DNA of 29,245 bases from a virus. Lineage: Duplodnaviria > Heunggongvirae > Uroviricota > Caudoviricetes. Below the pieces are notes generated by a model. The model had not been told where the DNA came from. It saw nothing but the letters and a program-made list of their open reading frames with translations, and did no database searches. Positions 1 to 29,245 of this stretch are shown in pieces (position 1 is the stretch's first letter; every line of letters starts with the position of its first letter). The position numbers were made by a program, and so were the translations under genes. Where the stretch lies: positions 1-29,245 of the IMG/VR virus record IMGVR_UViG_2778261122_000007. One strand, written 5' to 3'.

Positions 1-567
1 TATCGCGTCCTCAACAATGAATTTTGTGATGCGGTGCCTGGTGCCTCCAGGTGACGTTAACCAGTTAACAATTAACGCCGGATACAGAGAATCCACCCAT
101 GACACTGTTTTTGGTTTTAACTGTTCCGCGTGCGCTCAGCCGCATTCACCGCATCACAAAATTCACTTTAAAAAGGGCGGCAGAGCAGTCACGGAGTAAA
201 ACTGATACCGCCAAACGTCACCAGAAAATTGATAACAGAGGGCGTTGCAGCGGGGTTGTCACTTAAGCGTATGGTCAACCTGACAACCCGGTGTCCTCAA
301 CGGGGAAGGAATAACCCCGCCATACTTACCGTCGCGCCATTTCGCGGAGTGCCACAACCGGAAGCGCACGGTCGAAGAAAATTTAACGACAGACTATCTA
401 TGAACCAGCAACCTCGCCGTGCGCTTTCGCGTTATGCTCTGACTTTTCAGGGAAATATCCTTTCAGTAAACTGTCAGTGCCGGATGCTGACCCGTGTCCG
501 GCGCACGCACTCCACCTCACCCGTGGAGAACTCCTTAATTACCAACCTTAGCTTCGTTGGTTAGCTA

Positions 568-786
568 TTAACGCGGGTATGTAATCATTCTGGCAATGCT
601 TAATGCCGCTGCTTTTTCCAGCCTGGTGATATCCTGCTCCAGAGCGGACAGGTTTTCAGCCTGCTTAGCCCTGGCTTCATTGGCCCATTTCAGATCCTGC
701 GCTGCATTAATTTTCTGGCGCATCCACTCATAAAGTTCATCATCGGTATAGTCTGGCGCGATGATGATGGGTTCTCGTTTCTGCAT
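568..786 (-). CDS. hypothetical small protein (72 aa), early-left operon
   Basis: Intact ORF from the track; AGGAG Shine-Dalgarno immediately upstream of the ATG on the reverse strand (787-800); ordinary codon usage; same orientation as the repressor. No family recognised. Confidence 0.5.
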   Translation of the reverse strand: MQKREPIIIAPDYTDDELYEWMRQKINAAQDLKWANEARAKQAENLSALEQDITRLEKAAALSIARMITYPR

Positions 787-857
787 GTCGGCTCCTTGTG
801 GTTAGCGTTGCCTGCTTTTAACCACGTCAGGCGAGGTGGTATCCTCTGAGGGGGCTG

Positions 858-1214
858 TTACTCGAGAGGAAATTGGTTATGAATACAATCAAGTTTTCTT
901 GCCCAGAATGTGGTGGCGAAGTCTTTGACACATCCTTTAAGCCGCAGGGCTCTGACAGTTTCGCGGGAGCCATCTGCAAAAATTGTGGTCACCTTGTAAC
1001 TGAAGATGAGTCCTCGCAGTTCGATGACGAAATCGTTGACAATATCTTCGGTGCACTCACCAGAGACTTTCTGAAGTAAAGGCGCATACCGCTTAGTTAC
1101 CGCTCTGATAACTCTTACCTGTCCGGCAATGGCGCTGATATCAATATAAAGCGCCATCGCTGTTTCTTTGCTGATCCCTGGACGCCTTCCATTCTGATGT
1201 TTGACTTCGCCCAC
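858..1214 (-). CDS. hypothetical protein (118 aa), possible first gene of a leftward PL-like operon; overlaps and may be mutually exclusive with 879-1079 (+)
   Basis: ORF from the track; GTG start at 1214 preceded by GAGGA; lies downstream of a candidate leftward promoter/operator at 1395-1445; contains several AGA/AGG/GGA codons, which weakens the call. Confidence 0.3.
   Translation of the reverse strand: MGEVKHQNGRRPGISKETAMALYIDISAIAGQVRVIRAVTKRYAPLLQKVSGECTEDIVNDFVIELRGLIFSYKVTTIFADGSRETVRALRLKGCVKDFATTFWARKLDCIHNQFPLE
879..1079 (+). CDS. small zinc-ribbon protein (67 aa; CPECGG ... CKNCGH)
   Basis: ATG at 879 with GAGAGGA Shine-Dalgarno at 864-870; two CxxC pairs about 27 residues apart, typical of a zinc ribbon; clean codon usage. 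Fully overlapped by the antisense ORF 858-1214. Confidence 0.4.
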   Translation: MNTIKFSCPECGGEVFDTSFKPQGSDSFAGAICKNCGHLVTEDESSQFDDEIVDNIFGALTRDFLK

Positions 1215-1394
1215 TGAGAAATCCTCTGTTTCCCCTTAACGCCGGGGTAGCGGAACAAAAACCTGCTGCATAGTTATTAAAGTTGAACCCTGCCGTCATG
1301 TTCTTACGCCTCAGGCTGGCTACTTAACCCCTGACCACTGCCGGGTAACTCGAAGTATTGCCCTGCATTCTGTGGGGCGGGGTGGGTGGCAGGT

Positions 1395-1445
1395 ATATAA
1401 TGTACTTTGCGTTCATTGTTGTAAAGTACTTTTAGTACATTTTGT
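1395..1445. promoter_or_regulatory. candidate OL/PL-like operator-promoter region downstream of the repressor gene
   Basis: AATGTACT at 1399-1406, its inverted copy AGTACATT at 1434-1441 and AAAGTACT at 1423-1430; TATAAT/TATATA at 1394-1400 readable on either strand; the same ATGTACT motif recurs at 1960-1966 and 1984-1990 on the other side of the repressor. Confidence 0.35.
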
Positions 1446-1515
1446 GTGTAAAAAAATGAGATGGGATAAAGTGAAGCACAAACCCGGAGGAAGGCACTAC
1501 CGGATTTATGCTGGT

Positions 1516-1935
1516 TTAAGAGGCTTTTTGTTTTTTCTTTCGTGCTAACTCTTCGTAAATTGCATTGTACTTCTGTTTTTTCTCTTCAAGAGTTTTTAAA
1601 AGTTCATCTGTCTCACTGTCAGGGAGCTCGTCCAGAAGGTCAATGATGATTTTTTGTCTTGGATTTAACTCCTGATAGAAACGTACCTGTCCACTTTCTT
1701 CTGTATCCTCTCCCAAAAGATAGGTTGGTGTTGTTCCTATTAGTGTTGCTAATTCCCTTAATTTCTCCCGGCGAGGAATTGTTTCGCCATTAAACCATTT
1801 GCTAACCGCTTTTGGTGTTAATTTCATTCGACGGGCAATTTCTGCCTGCCTTCCATGTTGTTCATAACCAGCGTTTTCACAGGCTAGCGCAAGCCTACTG
1901 GCGAACTCTTTACGCGCTTTATCTTCATGAACCAT
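1516..1935 (-). CDS. prophage repressor, XRE-family helix-turn-helix (DicA/CI-like)
   Basis: 139 aa; HTH segment (MKLTPKAVSKWFNGETIPRREKLRELATLIGTTPTYLL) followed by an acidic/coiled C-terminal tail, the same architecture as DicA as I recall it; divergent from a Cro-like gene. Confidence 0.85.
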   Translation of the reverse strand: MVHEDKARKEFASRLALACENAGYEQHGRQAEIARRMKLTPKAVSKWFNGETIPRREKLRELATLIGTTPTYLLGEDTEESGQVRFYQELNPRQKIIIDLLDELPDSETDELLKTLEEKKQKYNAIYEELARKKKQKAS

Positions 1936-2014
1936 AAGTTCAATGATATTCGCTCTTGAATGTACTGTCAGTTCTGTTATAGCATGTACTCAAAGTTCAC
2001 ATTGTGAGGGTGAT
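1936..2014. promoter_or_regulatory. divergent promoter/operator region between repressor and cro-like gene (OR-like)
   Basis: 79-bp gap between divergent genes; direct repeats of ATGTACT at 1960-1966 and 1984-1990; inverted repeat TCACA-TT-TGTGA around 1996-2006; GAGGG Shine-Dalgarno at 2005-2009. Confidence 0.5.
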
Positions 2015-2269
2015 ATGAACCAGAAAACACTTGAAGATGTAATCAAAACTGTTCGCGTTGCTGTTGTGGCCGACGTTTGTGGTGTCAGCCAAAGAGCAAT
2101 CTATAAATGGATGGATAACGGGAAATTGCCTCGCACAGAATATACCGGCGAAACAAATTACGCTGAAAAAATCGCTCTTGCATCAAACGGATTATTTTCT
2201 GCCGATGCAATTTTAACTATTGGCAGGAATAAAACTACTACGAAAAAGCTGATGGGAGTTGATTCATGA
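2015..2269 (+). CDS. Cro/DicC/YdaS-family small HTH regulator
   Basis: 84 aa from ATG 2015 (the track ORF starts earlier at 1943); GAGGG Shine-Dalgarno 5 nt upstream; HTH-like segment CGVSQRAIYKWMDNGKLP; divergent from the repressor. Confidence 0.75.
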   Translation: MNQKTLEDVIKTVRVAVVADVCGVSQRAIYKWMDNGKLPRTEYTGETNYAEKIALASNGLFSADAILTIGRNKTTTKKLMGVDS

Positions 2270-2691
2270 AAATCAAGCATGAACACATCCGCATGGCGAT
2301 GAATGACTGGGCGCGTCCTGATGGTGAAAAAGTTCCGGCAGCTGGAATAACCCAGGCTTATTTTGAGTTGGGTATGACGTTTCCTGAACTGTACGACGAC
2401 AGCCATCCGGAAGCCCTGGCTCGCAATACCCAGAAAATTTTCCGCTGGATAGAGAAAGACACCCCTGATGCAGTTGAAAAAATTCAGGCGTTGTTACCAG
2501 CGATCGAAAAGGCAATGCCACCTTTGCTGGTGGCCAGAATGCGCAGCCACAGTTCAGCTTATTTTCGGGAGCTGGTGGAGACGCGGGAGCGACTGGTGAG
2601 AGACGCTGATGATTTTGTCGCAGTGGCAATCGCCGGTTTCAATCAGATGAACCGTGGTGGCCCGGCAGGAAATGCTGTGGCAGTACATTGA
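2266..2691 (+). CDS. YdaT-like protein (CII-like regulator/toxin family of Rac-type prophages)
   Basis: 141 aa; start overlaps the upstream stop (ATGA); N-terminus MKIKHEHI and C-terminal ...VH match my recollection of Rac YdaT; position after the cro-like gene is as in Rac (ydaS-ydaT-ydaU). Confidence 0.65.
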   Translation: MKIKHEHIRMAMNDWARPDGEKVPAAGITQAYFELGMTFPELYDDSHPEALARNTQKIFRWIEKDTPDAVEKIQALLPAIEKAMPPLLVARMRSHSSAYFRELVETRERLVRDADDFVAVAIAGFNQMNRGGPAGNAVAVH

Positions 2692-2762
2692 CTGACAATA
2701 GCCATATCGAATCGCTTCCGGCAACTCGTGAGTAAAAAGATTCGGTATCAGAAGAGGTGAGT

Positions 2763-3833
2763 ATGGCTAACGCCTGGCTCAGATTATGGCATGACATGCC
2801 AAATGACCCTAAGTGGCGAACAATTGCCAGGGTGTCAGGGCAGCCAATTGCAACAGTGATGGCAGTGTATATCCACCTCCTGGTGAGTGCGTCACGAAAT
2901 GTCACGCGAGGTCACATTGATGTCACGACAGAAGATTTGGCAAGTGCGCTCGACGTGACAGAAGAGGTAATTGATTCAATTTTGCAGACGATGCAGGGGC
3001 GGGTACTTGATGGTGATTTAATCACTGGATGGGAAAAACGCCAGGTGCTTAAAGAGGACAACGGCAATATTTCGCAAACCGCAAAATCTCCTGCAGAGCG
3101 CAAGAGGGCGCAGCGAGAGAGGGAAAGAAAGCGGGAACAAAATGGCGATTGTCACGGCGCGTCACGAAATGTCACGCACATGTCACGACGAGTCACGACA
3201 GATAAAGATACAGATAAAGATACAGATCAAGAAGATCAAAACACTATGGTCCATGGCGTAAAAAACGCCACGAACCAGGCAGGGGATGTTCAGACCGTCA
3301 ATCCTGGTCAGCCAGCAGGCACGACACCGGAAGCCGATTCAGCGTATGCGCTGAAAGCCGATTCGGGCGCTGTGCAGCAGGCGATGACCGCAGGGTCGGA
3401 GCAATCACACCAACTGCAGCAGCCTGAAGCCGATTCCGCCATTCAGCGGGAAGCCGATCGGGTAGTCCCGAAAAACACCGGGCAGCCTGTGGGACGAGTG
3501 GATTATCCGGATGTGTTCGAACAGATCTGGCGGGAGTACCCGTTGCGTGCCGGGGCAAACCCGAAGAAATCCGCTTTCAGTGCCTGGAAGGCCAGATTAC
3601 GCGAGGGGGTGCCACCAGAGGCCATGCTGGATGGCGTGAGGCGTTACGCAAGATACCTAGCGGTTACCGGGAAAACGGGAACGGAATTTGTTCAGCGGGC
3701 GACGACGTTTTTTGGACCGGACCGGAATTTTGAAAACCCCTGGTTGCTCCCGGTAAGCGGCACGAACAACCAGCGTTGTGTGAATCATATTTCTGAACCG
3801 GATACCGAAATTCCGCCGGGCTTCAGGGGGTAA
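2763..3833 (+). CDS. replication initiation protein (lambda O / YdaU-like), with internal iterons
   Basis: 356 aa from ATG 2763 (GAAGAGG Shine-Dalgarno; the track begins at GTG 2757); position after the cro/cII-like genes; contains two GTCACG iteron arrays and an adjacent tandem repeat, as lambda O contains its origin; basic/acidic low-complexity linker. Confidence 0.7.
   Translation: MANAWLRLWHDMPNDPKWRTIARVSGQPIATVMAVYIHLLVSASRNVTRGHIDVTTEDLASALDVTEEVIDSILQTMQGRVLDGDLITGWEKRQVLKEDNGNISQTAKSPAERKRAQRERERKREQNGDCHGASRNVTHMSRRVTTDKDTDKDTDQEDQNTMVHGVKNATNQAGDVQTVNPGQPAGTTPEADSAYALKADSGAVQQAMTAGSEQSHQLQQPEADSAIQREADRVVPKNTGQPVGRVDYPDVFEQIWREYPLRAGANPKKSAFSAWKARLREGVPPEAMLDGVRRYARYLAVTGKTGTEFVQRATTFFGPDRNFENPWLLPVSGTNNQRCVNHISEPDTEIPPGFRG
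2889..2959. repeat. iteron array 1: GTCAC(G/A) at 2891, 2901, 2911, 2922 (10-11 bp phasing) plus an inverted copy at 2954-2959
   Basis: Counted directly from the sequence; the 19-mer GCGTCACGAAATGTCACGC at 2889-2907 is repeated exactly at 3159-3177. Confidence 0.75.
3151..3197. repeat. iteron array 2: GTCACG at 3151, 3161, 3171, 3182, 3192 (10-11 bp phasing)
   Basis: Counted directly from the sequence; five helically phased copies; encodes the repeated RNVT/RRVT peptide motif in frame. Confidence 0.75.
3201..3228. repeat. tandem repeat GATAAAGATACA (about 2.3 copies), A/T-rich, immediately after iteron array 2
   Basis: Seen directly (gataaagataca gataaagataca gatc); encodes DKDTDKDTD; its position matches the A/T-rich unwinding element next to the iterons in lambda ori. 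Confidence 0.6.
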
Positions 3834-3873
3834 GTGTTTATTTCAGCTCATGAGGTAATTATCAGGAGGAGTT

Positions 3874-4299
3874 GTGGCAAAAGTTTTTACACAAGAAGAG
3901 CGGGAAAAAATTAAAGGGCAGGTTGTTGAACTTGTACGCCAGAGTGGGCGCGAGACGTTACGGCAACTGGAAGCCAAGACAGGTGCGACAAGATATTTGA
4001 TGAGTGTTCTCGCCAGAGAGCTGGTTGCCAGTGGCGATGTATACAATTCTGGCTACGGGTTATTCCCGTCTGAACAGGCTCGTAAAGACTGGCAAAACGC
4101 CCGCAAAAAATTATCGAGGGCAAAGCTGAAGAAACCGGTTGTGGTTGATCCGGACCTTATGTGGTCATTACCAGATGGAGAAATACGTCGCTACGACAGG
4201 CACCTGAATATAATCTGTCGCGAGTGCCGGGAGAGCGAAGTTATGCAGCGCATACTGGCATTTTATCAAGGAAATGTTAGGTATTTTAGACGTTACTAG
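3874..4299 (+). CDS. hypothetical protein (141 aa), possibly winged-helix-like
   Basis: ORF from the track with AGGAGG Shine-Dalgarno upstream (3862-3867); sits where a helicase loader (lambda P / DnaC-like) would be expected but is far too small and has no ATPase motifs. Confidence 0.55.
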   Translation: MAKVFTQEEREKIKGQVVELVRQSGRETLRQLEAKTGATRYLMSVLARELVASGDVYNSGYGLFPSEQARKDWQNARKKLSRAKLKKPVVVDPDLMWSLPDGEIRRYDRHLNIICRECRESEVMQRILAFYQGNVRYFRRY

Positions 4300-4527
4300 A
4301 TTAAAGAGCATTAGTTCAGATGTGAATTGACATTTTCATGGCGCAGGGTAGAGCTAGCGTGGTAGTTTTCTTTGTGCCAGAAACGGCATTTGCAAATATG
4401 GCCATGCGCTGTCACTTAGAGAGGAGCACAGGATTTACCTGTGCTCAAGTTCAATAGTAAAGATGAAAATATTATGAAGATGGTGGGGGAAATGTAACTG
4501 CAGTAATACTTTGTGCAAAAGTAGTAA

Positions 4528-5034
4528 TTATTTCTTTGCAGCCAGAATCAGGCCGTCAAGCCACTCCTGGTGACCATTGAGCATTGGGTTCGGACGAGTA
4601 TTTGCCAGGTCTTTTGCTGGAACTCCGTTCTGCGTTTCCTGTGTCAGGATACGGAGTCTGTTACCCGAGAGTTCCTCCAGTAGCCACGCATGATGAACAT
4701 CTAGGCGTTGTACAGTATCTTTTTCACCGGACCATCCGTGCCATGCCAAACGAGCAGGTTTACCTTCAGTAGGTGGAATAAATTCCACGACCTGAGCTTC
4801 AACCGGAAATCCAAATGTGCTGAAGTAAAAGCGCACGCCATTTTCCAGCTCCGGACCTTTATTGTTATAAAAGCGCACATCTGCTGAATTTTTATAGTAT
4901 TCCGGCCATAGTAATGGCTGACTAAGGAGTGGCCAAACATCATTGATGTTCAGACCGGAGATGATCATTTCATTAGACACAAAGTTATCAGTAAATCCCG
5001 GAACAAAGCCTTCTGGCCAGTGAATAGCGTTCAT
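4528..5034 (-). CDS. SRPBCC (Bet v1-like / polyketide cyclase-like) family protein
   Basis: 168 aa from ATG at 5034 (GGAGG Shine-Dalgarno on the reverse strand; the track ORF starts at TTG 5046); aromatic-rich composition typical of SRPBCC ligand-binding folds; family assigned by recognition, not by search. Confidence 0.7.
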   Translation of the reverse strand: MNAIHWPEGFVPGFTDNFVSNEMIISGLNINDVWPLLSQPLLWPEYYKNSADVRFYNNKGPELENGVRFYFSTFGFPVEAQVVEFIPPTEGKPARLAWHGWSGEKDTVQRLDVHHAWLLEELSGNRLRILTQETQNGVPAKDLANTRPNPMLNGHQEWLDGLILAAKK

Positions 5035-5169
5035 AAATGCCTCCAATTGCGGTAGTTAATTGTACTGGGTTTGCTGCGTTACGACCGCAACACGATGGCA
5101 GTGATTATTAGCGCAATGAAGTTATAAGGCGAATTATGATTACTTATAATCTTAATAAGATAAATTATA

Positions 5170-6078
5170 TCAGGAGCCAGTATCTTGGCTAACTTCTACG
5201 CATAAAGCCCGAATCCACTGATGGCTAGGGTCACGATGAGTTCGTTCATGCCAGGCCATACTCTTGGTAAAGCCCGGAACTTTCAGGGGCAAAGGGAGTA
5301 TGATTAGATCGTTGTTAGTCAGGACCATGCGGTGGGGGACAACAGCGATCATATCAGTCACTTGCAATATATCAGGAACTACTTGAAAACTATTAACTGA
5401 CATGCCTACTCGTCGTGTCAGACTGAGCTTAGCCAGTGCTTCATCTGTAACACCGGAGAAGCTACCTTCTGAAGACACCAGAATATGTTCCTGTTTGCAA
5501 AATTGTTCGAGAGTCATTTCTGAATTCGCTGACAACGGATGATTCCGTCGTGCTATGCAAACATAATCTTCTTCATAAAGTGCTCTGCCGTGCAGCTCTC
5601 CGGGAGTGGTTTGTGGTGTTACCAAAGCCAGATCAACTTCTCCCTGAGATAACTGCTGATATATTCGTTTATTGTCTACAGGCCGCACAGAGATTTTAAT
5701 ATTCGGTGCTCGATGTTTCAGCGCAGCCATCAATGGGACAACAACAGCCTTAACTGCATAGTCCGTTGCGACAATGGTATAAGTTAGTTCTGCCGTCATG
5801 GGGTCAAATTTACTTGGTTTCAGCAGAATCGCGATATCGGTGAGAATTTGTTTTACCGGCATAGCAAGCTCTTTGGCACGTAGTGTGGGAACCATACCGT
5901 GACTGGTGCGAACAAAGAGAGGATCGCAAAAATAATCACGTAATCGAATAAGCATGCCACTGACAGCGGGCTGCGTCAGGGAGAGTCGCTGCGCAGCCCG
6001 AGTCACGCTTCCCTCATCCATTAACGCATCAAAGGTCTTAAGTAAGTTAAGGTCGAGGGTTTTGATATCATTTTTCAT
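5170..6078 (-). CDS. LysR-family transcriptional regulator
   Basis: 302 aa; canonical LysR N-terminal HTH (LNLLKTFDALMDEGSVTRAAQRLSLTQPAVSGMLIRLRDYF) followed by a substrate-binding domain. Confidence 0.9.
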   Translation of the reverse strand: MKNDIKTLDLNLLKTFDALMDEGSVTRAAQRLSLTQPAVSGMLIRLRDYFCDPLFVRTSHGMVPTLRAKELAMPVKQILTDIAILLKPSKFDPMTAELTYTIVATDYAVKAVVVPLMAALKHRAPNIKISVRPVDNKRIYQQLSQGEVDLALVTPQTTPGELHGRALYEEDYVCIARRNHPLSANSEMTLEQFCKQEHILVSSEGSFSGVTDEALAKLSLTRRVGMSVNSFQVVPDILQVTDMIAVVPHRMVLTNNDLIILPLPLKVPGFTKSMAWHERTHRDPSHQWIRALCVEVSQDTGS

Positions 6079-6409
6079 AATGAGGTCACCTGACAGATAT
6101 AAAAATGTTGATTGAGGCTAATTGCCCCGATGAAGGTTGTCGAGGGGAACCAGGAGTTTTTTCTTTTGGGTGATTTCCATTGCTGGATAGTTCCCTTGTA
6201 CAGATAAGTCCGTTCTTCGCACAAAGCGGACTGGAAGGTTAGCTTGAGTCGGACTTTGCGTATTAGAAGAAGTGCTGGTGGTGACTGGTTCTTGAGCCCC
6301 ATTTCCCCAGAAAAAATCAGAGAAACTATACCCAATAGTTGTATTGATTCACTGACGAGACGGCCTCATATTGATAGGGACTAGTGTGCATCCAATACAG
6401 GAGGTTGTT

Positions 6410-6499
6410 GTGCTGGTTCTCAAATGTGCGCTGGCTATTGCGGCTGTAATGGCAATTTATTGTCTTTCTGTTGTTCTTATGGATCGCCTTTCTGATTGA
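6410..6499 (+). CDS. candidate small hydrophobic membrane peptide (29 aa; MLVLKCALAIAAVMAIYCLSVVLMDRLSD)
   Basis: Not in the ORF track (shorter than 60 aa). Strong CAGGAGG Shine-Dalgarno at 6398-6404, 5 nt before GTG 6410; single predicted transmembrane helix; lies upstream of hok. Confidence 0.35.
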   Translation: MLVLKCALAIAAVMAIYCLSVVLMDRLSD

Positions 6500-6653
6500 T
6501 TTCATATTGGCGAGGTAACGGTAGTTAAGTAGAATTGCTGCGGGTGCTTGAGGCTATCTGCCTCGGGCATGAACACCAACGGCAGATAGAGAAAAGCCCC
6601 AGTTAACATTACGCGTCCTGCAAGACGTTTAACATTAATCTGAGGCCATATCT

Positions 6654-6713
6654 ATGCGACACATAGAGATTAGCCTCTTACGGACCGAAAGGTCAAGGAG
6701 AAGCAGGCTATGA
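6654..6713 (+). CDS. mok-like leader ORF (19 codons) translationally coupled to hok
   Basis: ATG 6654 to TGA 6711-6713; the stop overlaps the hok start (ctATGa). Classic mok is longer, so this is an inference. Confidence 0.3.
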   Translation: MRHIEISLLRTERSRRSRL

Positions 6714-6865
6714 AGCAGCAAAAGGCGATGCTAATCGCCCTGATCGTCATCTGTTTAACCGTCATAGTGACGGCACTGGTAACGAGGAAAGACCTCTGCG
6801 AGGTACGAATCCGAACCGGCCAGACGGAGGTCGCTGTCTTCACAGCTTACGAACCTGAGGAGTAA
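6710..6865 (+). CDS. hok: Hok/Gef-family type I toxin (51 aa), HokD/RelF-like
   Basis: Not in the ORF track. Translation MKQQKAMLIALIVICLTVIVTALVTRKDLCEVRIRTGQTEVAVFTAYEPEE has the Hok signature (TM helix, TRK.LCE.R motif, conserved Cys); matches HokD as I recall it; structured leader upstream and terminator downstream. Confidence 0.85.
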   Translation: MKQQKAMLIALIVICLTVIVTALVTRKDLCEVRIRTGQTEVAVFTAYEPEE

Positions 6866-6933
6866 GAGACCAGGCGGGGGAGAAATCCCTCGCCACCTCT
6901 GATGTGTCAGGCATCCTCAACGCACCCGCACTT

Positions 6934-6960
6934 AACCCGCTTCGGCGGGTTTTGTTTTTT
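6934..6960 (+). terminator. rho-independent terminator downstream of hok
   Basis: AACCCGC-TTCG-GCGGGTT hairpin followed by TTTGTTTTTT. Confidence 0.7.
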
Positions 6961-7032
6961 CCTAGCATTCTGGTTTACAATTCGCACGCCAGCCTGAACA
7001 ACTGGCACCTGCTGCGCCAGCAGAGACAACCG

Positions 7033-7311
7033 ATGGCGCGCGATACCAAATTACACAATTCTAATGATTCTGCCGTCTTTGCCAGCAGGTGCGGACGGCG
7101 TTTTCACGCATTCAAATCAGACTGGTTCCAGCATCCTCCATGCACTGAAGAGCAGGCTGAATGGATAATTCAGTGTTACCGCAGGCGTGGATACGAGGTT
7201 AAGAAAGCTCTTAGTCTCGACTATCGTCACTGGATAATCTCAGTCAGACTCCCTTACTCCGAACGCCCACCGCGTCCGTCCCGCACATTCCAGCAACGGA
7301 TTTGGAGGTAA
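7033..7311 (+). CDS. hypothetical protein (92 aa), rem-like by position between hok and the DUF968 gene
   Basis: The track ORF 6904-7311 spans the hok terminator, so the first ATG after it (7033) is used; the hok-rem-ydfU-Q order is as I recall it for Qin. Start and identity are uncertain. Confidence 0.4.
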   Translation: MARDTKLHNSNDSAVFASRCGRRFHAFKSDWFQHPPCTEEQAEWIIQCYRRRGYEVKKALSLDYRHWIISVRLPYSERPPRPSRTFQQRIWR

Positions 7312-7312
7312 C

Positions 7313-8362
7313 GTGCGGGTATTACTTCGACCTGTTCTGGTACCGGAACTCGGGCTGGTGGTCCTTAAGCCAGGTCGTGAATCCATGCAGGTATTTCACA
7401 ATCCTCGAGTGCTGGTGGAGCCGGAACCGAAAAGCATGTGCGGCCTGCCATCCGGAGTCGTCCCTGCCGTTCGCCAGCCGCTGGCGGAGGATAAATCATT
7501 ACTGCCATTTTTCAGCGATGAGCGGGTGATTCGTGCTGCTGGCGGCGCTGGGGCACTGTCTGACTGGCTGTTGCGTCATGTCAAATCCTGCCAGTGGCCT
7601 CATGGTGACTATCATCACAGTGAAATCGTCATACATCGTTACGGTACCGGCGCGATGGTGTTGTGCTGGCACTGCGACAACCAGCTGCGTGACCAGACAT
7701 CCGAATCACTCGAGCAACTTGCTCATCAAAATCTGTCAGCATGGATGATTGACGTCATACGCCATGCAATGAATGGCACGCAGGAGAGGGAGTTATCGCT
7801 GGCTGAATTATCCTGGTGGGCGGTCTGCAATCAAGTGGCGGACGCGCTTCCGGAGGCAGTATTACGTCGTTCTCTGGGGTTACGTGCGGAAAAAATCCGC
7901 TCAATGTACCGTGAAAGCGACATCGTACCGGGAGAGCAGACCGCCACCAGCATACTGAAGCAGCGCACAAAAAATCTTGCGCCGTTGCTTCACACCCACC
8001 AGCCACAGAACCCAGCACAGGAAAAGCAGGTGGTCAGCATTGCCGTTGATCCGGAGTCTCCGGAATCTTTCATGAGGCGACCTAAACGTCGCCGTTGGGT
8101 AAATGAGAAATATACGCGCTGGGTGAAGACACAGCCGTGTGCGTGTTGTGGTCAACCAGCCGACGATCCCCATCACCTGATTGGTCACGGTCAGGGAGGG
8201 ATGGGAACAAAGGCCCACGATATTTTCACGCTACCGTTGTGCCGGGAACATCACAACGAACTTCATGCGGATCCGCTGGCGTTCGAAGAAAAGCATGGTT
8301 CTCAGGTTGATTTAATTTTTCGTTTTCTTGATCACGCCTTTGCAACCGGCGTGCTTGGGTAA
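7313..8362 (+). CDS. DUF968-family prophage protein (YdfU-like) with a C-terminal Cys/His cluster
   Basis: 349 aa; GTG 7313 preceded by GGAGG at 7304-7308; C-terminus CACCGQPADDPHHLIGHGQGGMGTKAHDIFTLPLCREHHNELH resembles an HNH/zinc-binding motif; position just upstream of rusA and Q. Confidence 0.7.
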   Translation: MRVLLRPVLVPELGLVVLKPGRESMQVFHNPRVLVEPEPKSMCGLPSGVVPAVRQPLAEDKSLLPFFSDERVIRAAGGAGALSDWLLRHVKSCQWPHGDYHHSEIVIHRYGTGAMVLCWHCDNQLRDQTSESLEQLAHQNLSAWMIDVIRHAMNGTQERELSLAELSWWAVCNQVADALPEAVLRRSLGLRAEKIRSMYRESDIVPGEQTATSILKQRTKNLAPLLHTHQPQNPAQEKQVVSIAVDPESPESFMRRPKRRRWVNEKYTRWVKTQPCACCGQPADDPHHLIGHGQGGMGTKAHDIFTLPLCREHHNELHADPLAFEEKHGSQVDLIFRFLDHAFATGVLG

Positions 8363-8374
8363 AAGAGGTTACTG

Positions 8375-8734
8375 ATGCGTATAGAGTTTGTTTTGCCTTA
8401 TCCGCCGACGGTGAATACTTACTGGCGACGTCGTGGCAGCACATATTTTGTATCAAAAGTCGGTGAGTGTTATCGCCGTGATGTGGCGCTTATTGTTCGC
8501 CAGCAGCGGCTGAAATTAAAACTGTCCGGAAGGCTGGCGATAAAGATTATTGCAGAGCCACCGGATAAGCGCCGTCGTGACCTGGACAATATCCTGAAAG
8601 CACCACTGGATGCGCTGACGCATGCCGGACTACTCATAGACGACGAGCAGTTTGATGAAATCAATATTGTGCGCGGTCAGCTCGTTCCTGGTGGGCGGCT
8701 GGGGATAAAAATCACAGAACTGGAGTGCGCATGA
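8375..8734 (+). CDS. rusA: RusA Holliday-junction resolvase
   Basis: 119 aa; DKRRRDLDN motif and overall similarity to E. coli RusA; located in the nin-like region before Q. Confidence 0.9.
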   Translation: MRIEFVLPYPPTVNTYWRRRGSTYFVSKVGECYRRDVALIVRQQRLKLKLSGRLAIKIIAEPPDKRRRDLDNILKAPLDALTHAGLLIDDEQFDEINIVRGQLVPGGRLGIKITELECA

Positions 8735-9420
8735 ATAACCAGTATTTACAGTTTGTGCGTGAGCAGCTCATTATCGCCACCGCTGATTTGAGTGGGGCAA
8801 CAAAAGGTCAGCTTGAAGTCTGGCAGGAGAATGCCATGTTCGATACAGGGCGTTACAGGCGAAAAAAAATCCGGTACCGCGATGAAGTGACTGGAAAAAT
8901 GATAACGCGGGATAATCCACCAATCCCGGGAAAGCAATCGCTGGCGAAGGGGACGTCAATTCCTCTGGTCAGTCCGGTTGAGTTTTCGACATCATCGTGG
9001 CGGCGGGCTGTTCTGTCTCTTGAAGAACATCATAAAGCCTGGTTGTTATGGTGTTACAGCGGGAGTATTTGTTGGGAATATCAGATCGCGATAACACAGT
9101 GGGCGTGGAATGAATTTAATACTCAATCCGGTACCAGAAAAATTGCAGGGAAAACGCAGGAACGCCTGAAAAAATTAATCTGGCTGGCGGCGCAGGCAGT
9201 AAAAGCAGAACTTTTAGATGGGGAAGGTTATGAATACCAGGAGCTGGCATTACTGGCGGGAGTGACAACTAAAAACTGGTCCAAAACATTTACTCGTCAC
9301 TGGGTTGCAATGAAACACATTTTTCAACGACTGGATAGTGAGGCTTTATTGTTTGTAATGAGAACGCGTTCAAAACAAAAGGCGGCATTTTCAAAGCAAA
9401 GTGTTGCAAAAGTAGATTGA
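8731..9420 (+). CDS. late-gene antiterminator Q-like protein
   Basis: 229 aa from ATG 8731 (overlaps the rusA stop in ATGA; the track starts at GTG 8725); last early gene before the tRNA/lysis region; Q family assigned by position and size, not by a recognised motif. Confidence 0.7.
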   Translation: MNNQYLQFVREQLIIATADLSGATKGQLEVWQENAMFDTGRYRRKKIRYRDEVTGKMITRDNPPIPGKQSLAKGTSIPLVSPVEFSTSSWRRAVLSLEEHHKAWLLWCYSGSICWEYQIAITQWAWNEFNTQSGTRKIAGKTQERLKKLIWLAAQAVKAELLDGEGYEYQELALLAGVTTKNWSKTFTRHWVAMKHIFQRLDSEALLFVMRTRSKQKAAFSKQSVAKVD

Positions 9421-9485
9421 AAGGCATATATTTCATGCAAATCTGATATTTTGCCGATTTTGTACGTGATGGCAAAAGCAAACAA

Positions 9486-9511
9486 AACCCGCCCACAAGC
9501 GGGTTTTTTTG
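9486..9511 (+). terminator. rho-independent terminator after Q (tR'-like candidate)
   Basis: AAACCCGC-CCACAA-GCGGGTTT hairpin followed by a T7 run. Confidence 0.7.
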
Positions 9512-9630
9512 TGCCACTTATCTCGGATAGACATGGTGAATGCGCTGGTGGAGGAAGTAAGGGTAATTTTTAACCAGGTGATTCTTGAATGCTTGCAACA
9601 TTGATTTCGTAACGTTATTATCCTGCGCCC

Positions 9631-9706
9631 GGCCCTTTAGCTCAGTGGTGAGAGCGAGCGACTCATAATCGCCAGGTCGCTGGTTCAAATCCAGCAAGGG
9701 CCACCA
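9631..9706 (+). tRNA. tRNA with CAU anticodon, Ile2 (lysidine) type, ileX/ileZ-like
   Basis: Manual cloverleaf: acceptor GGCCCTT/AAGGGCC, anticodon arm GCGACTCATAATCGC, T-loop TTCAAAT, encoded CCA; very close to my recollection of E. coli ileX. Confidence 0.8.
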
Positions 9707-9707
9707 A

Positions 9708-9784
9708 CCGCCACTAGCTCATCAGGAAAGAGCGTCAACCCTTTAAGTTGAGTGTGCGAGGTTCGAGTCCCCGGTGGCGGTCCA
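9708..9784 (+). tRNA. tRNA-like gene, anticodon loop CCUUUAA (apparent anticodon UUU, Lys); non-canonical C33 and an A-C mismatch in the T-stem
   Basis: Manual fold: acceptor CCGCCAC/GTGGCGG, D-arm GCTC/GAGC, anticodon stem TCAAC/GTTGA, T-loop TTCGAGT, encoded CCA. Identity is uncertain; it could be a degenerate or specialised tRNA. Confidence 0.5.
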
Positions 9785-9786
9785 GT

Positions 9787-9862
<76 letters not shown>

Positions 9863-9865
9863 TAT

Positions 9866-9940
<75 letters not shown>

Positions 9941-10283: not shown

Positions 10284-10309
10284 AGCCGCCGCTCCGGCGG
10301 CTTTTTTTA
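10284..10309 (+). terminator. rho-independent terminator between the tRNA cluster and the lysis genes
   Basis: AGCCGCC-GCTCC-GGCGGCT hairpin followed by TTTTTTT. Confidence 0.65.
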
Positions 10310-10427
10310 TTCATGCTGACTTCCTTCATTGTTAGTTATGGTGTTCTAAGGACTTTCTGTAACTGCATTTTCCCTGCACAAATTATTCATATTAACTACG
10401 CCATCCGTTATTTGCGGAGGTGAGGCT

Positions 10428-12023: not shown

Positions 12024-12028
12024 AGCAC

Positions 12029-25463: not shown

Positions 25464-26161
25464 TGCAGGATATACAGCAGGAAACACTGAATGAGTGTAC
25501 AAAAGCGGAGCAATCCGCGCTGGTCGTGCTCTGGGAAGTCGATCTGACAGAAGTCGGCGGAGAGCGTTATTTTTTCTGTAATGAGCAGAACGAAAAAGGT
25601 GAGCCGGTCACCTGGCAGGGGCGACAGTATCAGGCGTACCCCATCCAGGGGAGCGGATTTGAGATGAACGGTAAAGGAGCCAGCGCCAGGCCAACTCTGA
25701 AAGTCTCTAATCTGCACGGCATGGTCACCGGGATGGTGGAAGATTTGCAGAGCTTGGTCGGCGGAACGGTGGTCAGGCGTAAGGTTTACGCCCGTTTTCT
25801 GGATGCGGTGAACTTCGTCAACGGAAACAGCGACGCCGATCCGGAGCAGGAGGTGATCAGCCGCTGGCGCATCGAGCAGTGCAGCGAACTGAGCGCGGTC
25901 AGTGCCTCCTTTGTGCTCTCCACACCGACGGAAACGGACGGCGCTGTTTTTCCGGGACGTATCATGCTGGCCAACACCTGCACCTGGACCTATCGCGGTG
26001 ATGAGTGCGGTTATAGTGGTCCGGCGGTCGCGGATGAATATGACCAGCCAACGTCCGATATCACGAAGGATAAATGCAGCAAATGCCTGAGTGGCTGTAA
26101 GTTCCGCAATAACGTCGATAACTTTGGCGGCTTCCTTTCCATTAACAAACTTTCGCAGTAA
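25463..26161 (+). CDS. L: minor tail protein L
   Basis: 232 aa; strong similarity to lambda L as I recall it, including the C-terminal Cys cluster (CGYSG ... CSKCLSGCKFRNN). Confidence 0.9.
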   Translation: MQDIQQETLNECTKAEQSALVVLWEVDLTEVGGERYFFCNEQNEKGEPVTWQGRQYQAYPIQGSGFEMNGKGASARPTLKVSNLHGMVTGMVEDLQSLVGGTVVRRKVYARFLDAVNFVNGNSDADPEQEVISRWRIEQCSELSAVSASFVLSTPTETDGAVFPGRIMLANTCTWTYRGDECGYSGPAVADEYDQPTSDITKDKCSKCLSGCKFRNNVDNFGGFLSINKLSQ

Positions 26162-26165
26162 TCCC

Positions 26166-26909
26166 ATGACAGAGACAGAATCAGCGATTCTGGCGCACGC
26201 CCGGCGATGTGCGCCAGCGGAGTCGTGCGGCTTCGTGGTGAGAACGCCGGAGGGGGAAAGATATTTTCCCTGTGTGAATATTTCCGGTGAGCCGGAGGAT
26301 TATTTCCGGATGGCTCCGGAGGACTGGCTGCATGCAGAGATGCAGGGTGAGATTGTGGCGCTGGTCCACAGTCACCCCGGTGGTCTGCCCTGGCTGAGTG
26401 AGGCTGACCGGCGGCTGCAGGTGCAGAGTGATTTGCCGTGGTGGCTGGTCTGCCGGGGGGCGATTCATAAGTTCCGCTGTGTGCCGCATCTCACCGGGCG
26501 GCGCTTTGAGCACGGGGTGACGGACTGTTACACGCTGTTCCGGGATGCTTATCATCTGGCGGGGATTGAGATGCCGGATTTTCATCGCGGGGATGACTGG
26601 TGGCGTCACGGTCAGAATCTCTATCTGGATAATCTGGAGGCCACAGGACTGTATCAGGTGCCGTTGTCAGCGGCGCAGCCGGGCGATGTGCTGCTGTGCT
26701 GTTTTGGTTCATCGGTGCCGAATCATGCCGCCATTTACTGTGGTGACGGCGAGCTGCTGCACCATATTCCTGAACAACTGAGCAAACGAGAGAGGTATAC
26801 CGACAAATGGCAGCGACGCACACACTCCCTCTGGCGTCACCGGGCATGGCACGCATCTGCCTTTACGGGGATTTACAACGATTTGGCCGCCGCATCGACC
26901 TTCGTGTAA
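26166..26909 (+). CDS. K: tail assembly protein K (MPN/JAB and NlpC/P60 domains)
   Basis: ATG 26166 within the track ORF 26091-26909; MTETESAILAHARRCAPAESCGFVV... is near-identical to lambda K as I recall it. Confidence 0.9.
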   Translation: MTETESAILAHARRCAPAESCGFVVRTPEGERYFPCVNISGEPEDYFRMAPEDWLHAEMQGEIVALVHSHPGGLPWLSEADRRLQVQSDLPWWLVCRGAIHKFRCVPHLTGRRFEHGVTDCYTLFRDAYHLAGIEMPDFHRGDDWWRHGQNLYLDNLEATGLYQVPLSAAQPGDVLLCCFGSSVPNHAAIYCGDGELLHHIPEQLSKRERYTDKWQRRTHSLWRHRAWHASAFTGIYNDLAAASTFV

Positions 26910-27478
26910 AAACGGGGGCTGAAGCCATCCGGGCGCTGTCCACACAGGTCCCGGCGTTTCGTCAGAAACTGAATGACGGCTGGTATCAGGTGCGCATTGC
27001 CGGGCGTGATGCAGGTGAAACCGAATTATCTGCCCGTCTTAATGAGCCGCTGGCAAATGGTGCCGTGATCCATATCGTGCCGCGTCTGGCGGGAGCTAAA
27101 AGTGGCGGTGTGTTTCAGGCTGTGCTGGGGGCGGCGCTGATTGCGGTGGCATGGTGGAACCCTGTGGGCTGGCTGGGTGCCGCGGCTGTATCGGGCATGT
27201 ATGCGGCAGGGGCCAGTATGATCCTGGGCGGTGTGGCGCAGATGCTGGCACCGAAAGCCAGGACGCCCACGGCAGCAAGTACAGATAACGGCAAACAGAA
27301 CACCTATTTCTCGTCACTGGATAACATGGTTGCCCAGGGCAATGTTCTGCCTGTTCTGTACGGTGAAATGCGTGTGGGGTCGCGGGTGATTTCGCAGGAA
27401 GTCAGTACCCGTGATGAAGGGAACGATGGGAATATAGTGGTTATAGGGCGACAGGTATACAACAGCAGACATCTGTGA
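26807..27478 (+). CDS. I: tail assembly protein I
   Basis: 223 aa; MAATHTLPLASPGMARICLYGDLQRFGRRIDLRVKTG... is near-identical to lambda I as I recall it; overlaps the 3' end of K. Confidence 0.85.
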   Translation: MAATHTLPLASPGMARICLYGDLQRFGRRIDLRVKTGAEAIRALSTQVPAFRQKLNDGWYQVRIAGRDAGETELSARLNEPLANGAVIHIVPRLAGAKSGGVFQAVLGAALIAVAWWNPVGWLGAAAVSGMYAAGASMILGGVAQMLAPKARTPTAASTDNGKQNTYFSSLDNMVAQGNVLPVLYGEMRVGSRVISQEVSTRDEGNDGNIVVIGRQVYNSRHL

Positions 27479-27523
27479 GAACCCTCTTTGCATGGAAAAA
27501 TTGTTCAATGGTTATGGCGTAAG

Positions 27524-27547
27524 GGTAAGGGGGCTGCTCCCCTTACC
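27524..27547. terminator. perfect 9-bp stem-loop between convergent I and sodC; candidate bidirectional terminator
   Basis: GGTAAGGGG-GCTGCT-CCCCTTACC; no strong U tract on either side. Confidence 0.45.
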
Positions 27548-27554
27548 AGATTGA

Positions 27555-28082
27555 TTATGGAATGATGCCGCAGGCTATTCTCGCCCCGCCACCGCCGAGT
27601 GGCTCAGGATGGTCATGATGGTTGTCACCGCCTATGTGGATCATGAGAGAACGCCCGCCTATCTCTTGTAACCCTGTCAGTTTCGGTGCGAGTACAGGAT
27701 AGTTCGCCTTTCCATCATGAGTCACATACAGCGCAGGGAGATCACCGAGATGTCCGTCAGGAGACCAGGGGCCAAGATGCTTCCCGGTTTTTTTCGGGTC
27801 AAAGTGACCTCCTGCCGATAATGCCGCGACAGGTTTCCCGTCTTTCAGTGCCGGAGCGCAGTTTCCGTTCTCGTGTACATGAAAACCATGAATACCTTCG
27901 GGTAAAGAGTGAAGATCCGGAGTGAACAGCAGACCATAGGTCGTCTCCTGGACAGTTATTTTTCCAATGCTCTGTTCTTTTCCATCAGCATTCACAAGGT
28001 TCATCGGGACTTCTTTTGTGGCTGCGTATCCACACGATGATGCTGCCAGCATTGCAATGGCAGCAATAACGTTACATTTCAT
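27555..28082 (-). CDS. sodC: periplasmic Cu,Zn superoxide dismutase (prophage-borne moron)
   Basis: Start taken at ATG 28082 (GAGGG Shine-Dalgarno; the track ORF begins 4 codons earlier); signal peptide [20 protein letters not shown]; metal-ligand His motifs ([39 protein letters not shown]) typical of SodC. Confidence 0.9.
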
Positions 28083-28219
28083 AAAACCCCTCATTAAATC
28101 CTGTTAACAGACTGAGTTCGCTGCTTGCAGGAAAACAAGCAGCATTTCGATGATATCGCGCAAAAGTTATGCAATGTGGCTATTGCTGTGATTAATCATA
28201 TCAATCATAAGAGAGCATT

Positions 28220-29245
28220 ATGGGTAAAGGTGGCGGTAAAGCACGTACTCCGCATGAAGTGAAAGATAATCTCAAATCCACGCAGTTACTGAGTGTGATC
28301 GATGCCATCAGCGAAGGGCCGATTGAAGGTCCGGTGGATGGGTTAAAAAGCGTGCTACTGAACAGTACGCCGGTGCTGGACACTGAGGGGAATACCAATA
28401 TCTCCGGTGTCACGGTGGTGTTCCGGGCAGGTGAGCAGGAGCAGACTCCGCCGGAGGGGTTTGAATCCTCCGGCTCCGAGACGGTGCTGGGTACGGAAGT
28501 GAAATATGACACGCCGATAACCCGCACCATCACGTCGGCAAACATCGACCGTCTGCGTTTTACCTTCGGTGTGCAGGCACTGGTGGAAACCACTTCAAAG
28601 GGTGACCGGAATCCGTCGGAAGTTCGCCTGCTGGTTCAGATACAGCGTAACGGTGGCTGGGTGACGGAAAAAGACATCACCATTAAGGGCAAAACCACCT
28701 CGCAGTATCTGGCCTCGGTGGTGGTGGATAACCTGCCTCCGCGCCCGTTCAATATCCGGATGCGCAGGATGACACCGGACAGCACCACAGACCAGCTGCA
28801 GAACAAAACGCTCTGGTCGTCATACACCGAAATCATCGATATGAAACAGTGCTACCCGAACACGGCACTGGTCGGTGTGCAGGTGGACTCGGAGCAGTTC
28901 GGCAGTCAGCAGGTGAGTCGTAATTATCATCTGCGCGGGCGCATTCTGCAGGTGCCGTCGAACTATAACCCGCAGACGCGACAATACAGCGGTATCTGGG
29001 ACGGAACGTTAAAACCGGCATACAGCAACAACATGGCCTGGTGTCTGTGGGATATGCTGACCCATCCGCGCTACGGCATGGGGAAACGTCTTGGTGCGGC
29101 GGATGTGGACAAATGGGCGCTGTATGTCATCGGCCAGAATTGCGACCAGTCGGTGCCGGATGGCTTTGGTGGCACGGAGCCGCGCATCACCTGTAATGCC
29201 TGGCTGACCACACAGCGTAAGGCGTGGGATGTTCTCAGTGATTTC
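28220..29245 (+). CDS. J: tail tip / host-specificity protein J, N-terminal 342 codons (3'-truncated at window end)
   Basis: Absent from the ORF track because it has no stop codon in the window; from ATG 28220 the translation MGKGGGKARTPHEVKDNLKSTQLLSVIDAISEGPIEGPVDGLKSVLLNSTPVLDTEGNTNISGV... closely matches lambda J as I recall it. Confidence 0.9.
   Translation, partial: MGKGGGKARTPHEVKDNLKSTQLLSVIDAISEGPIEGPVDGLKSVLLNSTPVLDTEGNTNISGVTVVFRAGEQEQTPPEGFESSGSETVLGTEVKYDTPITRTITSANIDRLRFTFGVQALVETTSKGDRNPSEVRLLVQIQRNGGWVTEKDITIKGKTTSQYLASVVVDNLPPRPFNIRMRRMTPDSTTDQLQNKTLWSSYTEIIDMKQCYPNTALVGVQVDSEQFGSQQVSRNYHLRGRILQVPSNYNPQTRQYSGIWDGTLKPAYSNNMAWCLWDMLTHPRYGMGKRLGAADVDKWALYVIGQNCDQSVPDGFGGTEPRITCNAWLTTQRKAWDVLSDF

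Follow-up and report, generated by a model that had tools for sequence, protein, structure and literature searches.

The question raised by this stretch of viral DNA is whether it stems from one phage lineage or is an assembly of parts with different affinities, and where the parts come from. The stretch (29,245 nucleotides (nt), positions 1 to 29,245 of IMG/VR record IMGVR_UViG_2778261122_000007; the whole of it is called the window below) begins a little to the right of dicB, within the leftward early operon, and ends with the first third of the tail-tip gene J. It represents a common mosaic lambda-like prophage of Escherichia coli from the immunity genes to the tail tip, and there is nothing unusual about it. 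With a probability of about 90%, we consider these 29.2 kb to belong to a temperate lambdoid siphovirus prophage that has been put together by recombination from modules in circulation among the lambdoid prophages of E. coli. A reading of the bare sequence that preceded this analysis (the original prediction) had described a mosaic with a Qin/Rac-like early region, phage-21-like lysis genes, an HK97-like head, a lambda-like tail and cargo genes at the module junctions. The mosaic with cargo at its junctions was borne out: the parts differ in their affinities, and no single phage accounts for them. Five of the specific attributions need correction, so that the observation is partly confirmed and its interpretation partly supported.

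The gene map (Table 1) is based on a listing of open reading frames (ORFs), on scans with Pfam, PHROG and NCBIfam models and on annotated relatives; RNAs were placed with Rfam and ARAGORN. For the origin of the parts, lambda, HK97, phage 21 and the prophages Qin and Rac of E. coli K-12 were used for comparison (proteins by tblastn, modules by blastn). The databases compared comprised 50,697 phage records and 5,426 complete E. coli genomes. According to Pfam, PHROG and tblastn, the genes follow the lambdoid order (immunity, replication, nin/Q, lysis, packaging, head, tail) on the plus strand, with the repressor divergent.

Uniform high identity to one known phage was looked for and was not found. 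While 716 phage records match bases 1-24000, none reaches 80% coverage; the top record for this part is vB_EcoM-606R7 (76% coverage, 95.7% identity). For bases 24000-29245, the top phage coverage is 84%, from phages that lack sodC. GenBank phage records have 56-76% of the window in common, at 94-96% identity, and the best one is a partial genome that includes host genes. The window might nevertheless descend nearly unchanged from one described phage, the module labels then reflecting nothing but family-wide similarity, and the long colinear stretches at 95-97% identity in vB_EcoM-606R7, phi467 and Evi would agree with this. We consider such a descent extremely improbable. No phage record covers 80% or more of the window, and even the 99.8% relative JBRXKB010000006 differs in the immunity cassette, having a different, S24-type repressor left of position 2261. 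In addition, CP148323 and 606R7, the closest relatives, have lysozymes of a type that is non-homologous to the endolysin of the window.

All 5,426 complete E. coli genomes match the window somewhere, with a median of five places per genome. Coverage of at least 80% is attained in 34 of them (top value 85%, at 98.2% identity). Mosaicism and morons are textbook lambdoid architecture, and public E. coli genomes already contain annotated prophages that are nearly identical to the window. The median of five matching places per genome makes repeat-induced misjoins in drafts plausible in principle, and the mosaic could be an assembly chimera of several co-resident prophages joined across repeats. This is very improbable, because other assemblies run through the junctions. 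The draft contig DADHBO010000030 (GCA_017001795.1) agrees with the window at 100% over 1-11034, a stretch that includes the junctions at 786, 1229, 1387, 2260, 4372, 6210, 9941 and 10644; the fetched locus extends leftward into the exonuclease gene left of dicB, and the contig ends inside TerL. Two gapless matches to contig JBRXKB010000006 cover 2261-22568 (99.83%) and 17558-29245 (99.88%). Together with the complete chromosomes CP128888 and CP148323, this contig spans the junctions from 2261 or 12707 to 29245.

The mosaic boundaries point the same way as the coverage data. They were taken from more than 30 relatives, gathered by exact-protein look-ups (cited by L numbers where needed), which gave 49 clusters of breakpoints. 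Breakpoints lie at a median distance of 58 nt from a gene border; for random positions, the median is 140 nt (permutation P about 2e-4, a value that is indicative only because the clusters are not independent and the exact-protein look-ups bias the sample of relatives). Within 30 nt of a gene border lie 43% of the breakpoints, against 14% of random positions. Two thirds of the breakpoints fall into the first 12.7 kb. The break at 2260/2261, between the cro stop and the ydaT start, recurs in five relatives.

Prophages residing in the same cell would have exchanged parts by homologous recombination, with conserved linkers and gene borders as the sites; cargo may have been gained by illegitimate recombination. 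The pattern fits such exchange, which is the standard model for lambdoid phages (Botstein's modular theory; Juhala et al. 2000). The modules of the window are a leftward backbone of Qin type with dicF and ydfC; an immunity cassette that is self-contained, with the repressor, the cro-like gene and operator-like repeats on its flanks, the identical repressor being found at the Rac, Qin and mtfA sites; a replication block (YdaT, O-like initiator, DUF977 protein) whose initiator gene contains iterons; a hok/sok-DUF968 block of Qin type, with RusA and a Q of family PF06323 after it; a tRNA cluster; a pinholin and an endolysin of phage 21 type; an HK97-family head with HNH endonuclease and P27-family terminase; an HK97-like joining and tail-shaft block; and a lambda/21-like tail tip (L, K, I, J).

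Table 1. Features of the window, with coordinates, strand and the matches on which each assignment is based (aa, amino acid; E, E value).
Feature	Coordinates	Strand	Evidence
DicF small RNA	175-226	-	Rfam RF00039, 76.7 bits (gathering score 48)
ydfC homologue	568-786	-	97% aa identity to Qin YdfC, full length
99-aa hypothetical protein, in place of ydfA/ydfB	858-1157	-	phrog_21318, E 2e-67
Conserved 159-bp intergenic linker between variable segments	1229-1387	.	86-99% nt identity across prophages with differing repressor genes
Immunity repressor, XRE HTH, 139 aa, without S24 peptidase domain	1516-1935	-	PF01381, E 1.8e-9
cro-like HTH protein, 84 aa	2015-2269	+	phrog_35, E 7e-14; weak, sub-cut-off HTH_17; also called as 84 aa in relatives
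YdaT-family/CII-like protein	2266-2691	+	PF06254, 39.9 bits (cut-off 21); phrog_163 (CII-like), E 1.5e-44; 33% aa identity to Rac YdaT
O-like replication initiator with internal iterons	2757-3833	+	phrog_3729, E 4e-254
DUF977/Ren-like protein	3874-4299	+	PF06163, E 9e-28; phrog_142
LysR+SRPBCC cargo cassette	4372-6227	-	breakpoints at 4372 and 6210
168-aa protein, SRPBCC by name	4528-5034	-	NCBI name SRPBCC/polyketide cyclase; PDB 4R7K, E 4e-51
LysR regulator	5170-6078	-	PF00126 and PF03466
sok/hok type I toxin-antitoxin locus (hokD 6710-6865)	6542-6865	+	Rfam RF01794, 101.3 bits
92-aa hypothetical protein (not Rem)	7033-7311	+	phrog_1212; 76% aa identity to unnamed ORF beside ydfU in Qin
DUF968 protein, YdfU homologue	7313-8362	+	PF06147, E 5e-78; 85% aa identity to YdfU
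RusA Holliday-junction resolvase, between DUF968 and Q	8375-8734	+	PF05866; 64% aa identity to HK97 RusA; not in Qin
Late-gene antiterminator Q	8725-9420	+	PF06323, E 6e-91
Four-tRNA cluster: CAU, Lys-UUU, Thr-UGU, Gly-UCC	9631-9940	+	ARAGORN, Rfam
Class II holin, phage 21 pinholin type	10428-10643	+	PF04971, E 7e-36; 68 of 71 residues identical to S21 (95.8%)
SAR (signal-anchor-release) endolysin, phage 21 R type	10643-11140	+	PF00959; 157 of 165 residues identical to R21 (95.2%)
Rz i-spanin with embedded Rz1 o-spanin (11357-11539)	11137-11601	+	PF03245
88-aa hypothetical protein, part of the Rz-HNH insert	11757-12023	+	phrog_5415, E 6e-38; beside the YfbU gene in 5 of 5 relatives shown
YfbU-family cargo gene	12029-12568	-	PF03887, 41.8 bits (cut-off 25); phrog_6084; NCBI name YfbU family protein
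HNH endonuclease	12707-13057	+	PF01844; 37% aa identity to HK97
P27-family small terminase	13205-13687	+	PF05119; no match to HK97 TerS
Large terminase	13687-15444	+	PF03354 and PF20441; 29% aa identity to HK97
Portal	15638-16879	+	PF04860; 32% aa identity to HK97
S78 prohead protease	16857-17507	+	PF04586; 36% aa identity to HK97
HK97-fold major capsid protein	17522-18727	+	PF05065; 25% aa identity to HK97
Head-tail joining: gp6-like connector, head closure, HK97 gp10-like, tail completion	18978-20417	+	PF05135, PF05521, PF04883, PF11367
Major tail protein	20478-21182	+	71% aa identity to HK97
Tail chaperones G and G-T	21197-21870	+	PF06222, PF06223; 65% (G) and 64% (T) aa identity to HK97
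Tape measure	21911-25129	+	PF06120 (HK97 tape measure); 55% aa identity to HK97
Minor tail protein M	25164-25463	+	PF05939; aa identity 39% to lambda M, 42% to phage 21 M, 39% to HK97 M
Tail tip L	25463-26161	+	94% aa identity to lambda
Tail tip K	26166-26909	+	96.8% aa identity to phage 21; 94.7% nt identity to lambda
Tail tip I	26807-27478	+	73% aa identity to lambda, patchy (40/40 identical N-terminally, 21/40 mid-protein)
Cu,Zn superoxide dismutase gene sodC, in the I-J gap	27555-28082	-	NCBIfam NF007628, 219.5 bits (cut-off 165)
Tail tip protein J, first 342 codons, leaves the window	28220-29245	+	PF24801; aa identity 96.5% to lambda J, 95.9% to phage 21 J

A Qin/Rac-like early region applies to dicF, ydfC, hok/sok, the DUF968 gene and the YdaT-family gene, but not to the repressor/cro pair, the replication gene and Q. 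At the left end, the dicF-ydfC block (1-786) is 97.1% identical to Qin at the nt level. The adjacent segment (787-1228) is missing from K-12 Qin, Rac, CP148323 and 606R7. Exact copies of the 99-aa protein encoded there occur in 7661 collection blocks; the prophages concerned occupy the Qin and ompW sites, and O157 is among their hosts.

The 159-bp linker to the right of this segment has different neighbours in different prophages: RacR in Rac, a LexA-family gene in CP148323, a 123-aa gene beside a ParE/PaaA2 pair in L024 and the window repressor in L013-L018. Ends of alignments (high-scoring segment pairs) pile up at its edges, with 14 at 1229 and 11 at 1387. When the linker was examined as an RNA, neither folding (z 0.44) nor Rfam (threshold E 1) gave a signal. 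Assignment of 1229-1384 as a DUF1391 gene was rejected, as this stretch is the intergenic linker upstream of the DUF1391 gene in relatives. The linker may be a promoter or leader of the leftward operon, or a mere recombination linker.

The repressor had been described as DicA-like. Judged by alignment, it is only distantly so: identity to DicA is 29% aa over 78% of the protein, and the NCBIfam DicA model scores 56.8 bits, against a cut-off of 101. The identical repressor, together with its 84-aa cro gene and a YdaT gene, occurs in 32,452 collection blocks, and repressor-bearing prophages sit beside ttcA (Rac site), rspB/ynfP (Qin site) and mtfA. Of the proposed YdaS/YdaT-like pair, the YdaT family holds, whereas the cro-like protein gave no match to YdaS_toxin (PF15943) in Pfam; the Rac YdaS control scored 107.7 bits. 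Repeats of the form A[T/A]GTACT-N5-GT[T/A]CA are confined to 1400-1441 and 1960-1999 and thus flank the repressor gene on both sides. They look like candidate OL and OR operators, both of them within the swapped cassette (1388-2260).

For the O-like initiator, tblastn gave no real match to the replication genes of Rac and Qin, the sole YdaU/YdaV match spanning 5% of the protein. The hexamer GTCACG occurs eight times inside the initiator gene, phased by 10-11 bp and arranged in two clusters (2891-2929 and 3151-3199). This is likely to be a replication origin embedded in the initiator gene (ori-in-O), as in lambda.

The hok/sok-DUF968 block is of Qin type, but the proposed order hok-rem-DUF968-Q as in Qin had to be abandoned: rem is absent, RusA is inserted, and Q belongs to PF06323, not to PF03589. 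HokD is 100% identical to the Qin copy at the aa level, and the sok/hok segment 98.5-98.9% at the nt level (6696-6959: 98.5%). The hok/sok locus, which had been listed with the cargo, is conserved backbone, present in nearly all relatives and in Qin, and no element-specific insertion. The 422-nt interval that holds rem in Qin comprises only 56 nt here (6960-7015). The ORF at 6904-7311, which spans the 92-aa gene, matches no Pfam family, not even Rem (PF27490); Rem is encoded by a separate gene in the relatives L027 and L040. Q gave no tblastn match to the Q genes of Qin, lambda, HK97 and phage 21. The Q of Qin (YdfT) belongs to PF03589 and that of phage 21 to PF06530.

In the tRNA cluster, the CAU tRNA is assigned as Met by ARAGORN, while RefSeq annotates its counterparts in relatives as tRNA-Ile. 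Beyond the cluster lies a low-GC spacer of 452 bp that the closest annotated relatives do not have. At its end (10284-10302), the spacer has a strong terminator-like hairpin, with eight pairs (seven of them G-C) and a T run.

The lysis genes had been attributed to phage 21. This is right for S and R, while Rz (79% aa identity to phage 21, 80.5% to lambda) and Rz1 (85% to either) are equally close to lambda. The identity to phage 21 takes in the MKSM start of S (dual start) and the N-terminal hydrophobic segment of R; from it, pinholin and signal-anchor-release function are predicted. The endolysin has only 32-35% aa identity to the lysozymes found in Qin and in CP148323 and 606R7. As these last two, the closest relatives, carry a different lysozyme type, the 21-type endolysin is itself a swapped unit, the breaks being at the S/R border (10630-10644) and the R/Rz border (11138).

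For packaging and head, the attribution to HK97 is valid for the Pfam families, with matches far above the cut-offs, but identity to HK97 itself is only 25-37% aa. No decoration or scaffold gene is present in the protease-capsid interval. The DNA at 15425-18851 is 97% identical to Shigella phage SfIV, and the portal-to-capsid block also matches other phages. On alignment, the HK97 likeness of the head is at the family level only, and a stronger affinity is found in the head-tail joining and tail-shaft genes. Compared with HK97, aa identity is 63% for head closure (gp7), 79% for the gp10-like protein (gp10) and 51% for tail completion (tail terminator). A slippery sequence A_AAA_AAG is found at the end of G (21559-21565), and T is open in the -1 frame.

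A lambda-like tail does not hold as a whole. The shaft is HK97-like (51-79% aa identity), and no tblastn match at E 1e-3 or better was obtained for lambda Nu1 through U, V, G and T; only lambda H matches the tape measure, and weakly (26% aa identity over 30%). Homology to lambda and phage 21 starts abruptly at 25443, at the M/L border. From there to 27450, the DNA is 87-88% identical to both phages, and the J part (28220-29245) is 94.5% identical to lambda. Of the genes M, L, K, I and J, which had been called near-identical to lambda, L, K and the N-terminus of J justify this, but M and I do not. The corrected label, as given by these alignments, is an HK97-family head, an HK97-like tail shaft and a lambda/21-like tail tip.

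Three cargo inserts, all on the minus strand, occupy slots that are empty or otherwise filled among relatives. Their GC content is 0.447 (slot 4300-6500), 0.411 (YfbU) and 0.484 (sodC), compared with 0.51-0.56 in the flanks. The LysR+SRPBCC pair, the 88-aa gene with YfbU, and sodC are classic morons, and for these the prediction of cargo at module junctions is correct. Morons are said to have been described by Juhala et al. in 2000 as extra genes between neighbours of related phages.

The SRPBCC label of the 168-aa protein is suggested by its NCBI name and by sequence homology to PDB 4R7K, a close homologue which is the structurally solved but uncharacterised jhp0584 of Helicobacter pylori. 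The protein gave no match to Pfam or NCBIfam models, and a single-sequence AlphaFold model was discarded (pLDDT 39.5, too low for use). More than 1,500 homologues exist, mostly chromosomal (Pantoea, Erwinia, Enterobacter, Rhizobium and others). In a Pantoea chromosome, a LysR-then-SRPBCC pair adjoins pspF, and the cassette is 76.5% identical at the nt level. A plasmid-like contig of Enterobacter huaxiensis matches at 84.3% nt identity, and the ends of this match coincide with the prophage breakpoints 4372 and 6210. From these two matches, the cassette appears to be a captured chromosomal two-gene unit.

In relatives, the slot between DUF977 and hok is filled by genes for QueH, an FRG-domain protein, SMODS+SLATT, a GAPS4-type PDDEXK nuclease, an M78/HTH pair and others. 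It looks like a hotspot for accessory and defence-type genes; we take the SMODS+SLATT, GAPS4-type nuclease, FRG and RES families to be typical of anti-phage defence. The relatives with this hypervariable slot, which is equivalent to 4300-6500 of the window, are L014, L016, L020, L021, L022 and NZ_CP038791 (H39). A RES NAD+ phosphorylase is annotated somewhere under the NZ_CP038791 match and may belong to the slot. PADLOC defence models, applied to ten early-region and cargo proteins of the window, gave no match. We regard it as very improbable that the LysR+SRPBCC cassette (1.86 kb) represents an undescribed module for lysogenic conversion or anti-phage action, and not passive cargo, or, as a second possibility, that the 159-bp linker is a dedicated recombination or regulatory element.

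The second insert (11742-12706, between Rz and HNH) is at the position of bor in lambda and phage 21. This slot holds a GNAT gene in CP148323 and is empty in 606R7 (42-nt gap). The third insert, sodC, lies in the gap between I and J, which comprises 741 nt here versus 60 nt in lambda; its immediate flanks have a GC content of 0.56.

The original prediction had correctly noted that the window contains neither integrase nor attachment site and that intactness cannot be judged from it alone. A search with six integrases gave chance-level matches only within the window (best E 0.33) and no excisionase similarity, and the 3' end of tRNA-Ser (att core) had no match of 12 nt or longer. In relatives, the integrase gene is located about 3.2-4.3 kb left of the position of the window start. 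The integrase and the att site thus lie outside the window, and their absence from it need not extend to the element.

The relatives also suggest where the element belongs. In the complete genomes among them, the prophage is beside tRNA-Ser and mtfA. Downstream of J, the closest relatives (JBRXKB010000006, CP128888 and others) have first side tail fibre genes and then cdtA-cdtB-cdtC (at L030:138-2238, L028:618-2718 and L034:42531-44631). The cdt operon in L028 and L030 is 97.4% identical to phage cdtI at the nt level, and RefSeq assigns type I in CP128888. In TUM14697, zinT follows the cdt genes at the right end, and the prophage has about 43 kb in all. By sequence relationship, the window probably belongs to a CDT-I-converting prophage family found between tRNA-Ser/mtfA and zinT. 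This copy would then sit at tRNA-Ser(serU)/mtfA-zinT and have cdtABC of type I downstream, as do the relatives with 99.8-99.9% identity.

The element could be a defective, domesticated prophage like Qin and Rac, unable to excise or to form particles. We consider this quite possible, though somewhat short of even odds. Both complete-genome relatives have an integrase gene that is annotated with a frameshift (L001:7248-8298, L034:2807-3857), which suggests that the lineage may be locked in the chromosome. Moreover, the side tail fibre is split in TUM14697, and in the 99.88% identical relative L031, J is truncated and fused to chromosomal genes. The repressor is devoid of an S24 domain and hence unlikely to undergo RecA-mediated self-cleavage, and the window shows no antirepressor. 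Against a defect speak the structural, lysis and regulatory genes of the window, which are full length and 97-100% identical to their counterparts in relatives. The slippery site and -1 frame layout of G/G-T are intact, and iterons and operator-like repeats are present. The share of the window found in GenBank phage records (56-76% at 94-96% identity) also argues against it, to the extent allowed by the best record being a partial genome with host genes.

Several points weigh against the overall picture of a recombinant lambdoid prophage that carries morons and belongs to the CDT-I-converting family. Besides the indicative nature of the P value, the recombination mechanism is deduced from breakpoint positions. 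The integration site and the cdt linkage of the window are extrapolated from relatives. Morons are defined in part by a promoter and terminator of their own; for the three cargo sites these are putative at most, as consensus scans gave counts not above those of shuffled sequence, with hits such as a promoter-like site (10/12) at 5191-5164 on the minus strand.

The value of the window as a discovery is small. The practical gain is a corrected module map, in which the tail shaft gives way to the tail tip at the M/L border, rem is absent, and neither Q nor the immunity genes are of Qin or Rac type. There are also signs that this prophage family is the vehicle of CDT-I and of a prophage sodC in E. 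coli associated with extraintestinal or avian sources, which should help in annotating and typing such strains.

When compared with known systems, the window resembles Qin in dicF-ydfC (97% nt), hokD (100%), the 92-aa ORF (76%), YdfU (85%) and the holin (85% aa). It differs in the repressor (29% to DicA), in the lack of rem and relBE, in the inserted RusA and in the Q family. The lysozyme of Qin is of another type (34% aa), and Qin has no head or tail shaft to compare. With Rac, it shares a YdaT-family protein at the same position after cro (33% aa), the 159-bp linker (86% nt) and Rz (77% aa), but it lacks a YdaS-family protein, RacR and YdaU/YdaV. The likeness to phage 21 comprises the lysis DNA (88.4% over 10394-11600) and the presence of tRNAs between Q and S in both. 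The two differ in the Q family (PF06530 in phage 21, PF06323 here), in the tRNA sets and in the gene after Rz (bor in phage 21, YfbU here).

HK97 has the same order HNH-TerS-TerL-portal-S78-capsid-connectors-tail shaft, shares the G/T -1 frameshift and is 51-79% identical in aa from connector to tape measure. In contrast, TerL, portal, protease and capsid are at 25-36%, and L, K, I and J have 34-39% to HK97 compared with 73-97% to lambda or phage 21. Lambda is similar in L, K, I, the N-terminus of J and Rz, and has no gene between I and J. Such a gene is present in the O157 Stx2a phage Stx2_EH1846, whose SodC occupies the same I-J slot in the same opposite orientation, with 87% aa identity and a similar cysteine-containing signal peptide, although the tail genes around it are only about 78% identical to the window at the nt level. 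Prophage sodC-F genes (sodC-F1/F2) have been described for E. coli O157:H7 (PMC2569942).

Among named phages, vB_EcoM-606R7 (ON470580, partial genome) is the best match, being colinear from dicF to tail gene I; phi467, Evi and vB_EcoS-689R5 resemble it. It lacks the 99-aa gene, the immunity cassette of the window, LysR+SRPBCC, the 21-type endolysin, the YfbU insert and sodC. The closest systems are prophages: those of TUM14697 (NZ_CP128888, CDT-I) and of the draft JBRXKB010000006 (cdtABC beyond the tail fibres), both at tRNA-Ser/mtfA-zinT, and a related one beside tRNA-Ser/mtfA in Z1323HEC0477 (NZ_CP148323). The immunity cassette differs in all three (LexA/S24-type in CP148323 and JBRXKB, another LexA-family one in CP128888). 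CP148323 differs further in its endolysin type, in extra YagU/AraC genes between the tRNAs and S and in having GNAT instead of YfbU, and CP128888 in other replication genes and QueH instead of LysR+SRPBCC. The LysR+SRPBCC cassette is also found in CP148323 and JBRXKB, and the YfbU insert and the 21-type lysis genes in CP128888 and JBRXKB. From HNH (or ydaT) to J, all three prophages are 99.3-99.9% identical to the window at the nt level and have the same gene order, with sodC between I and J.

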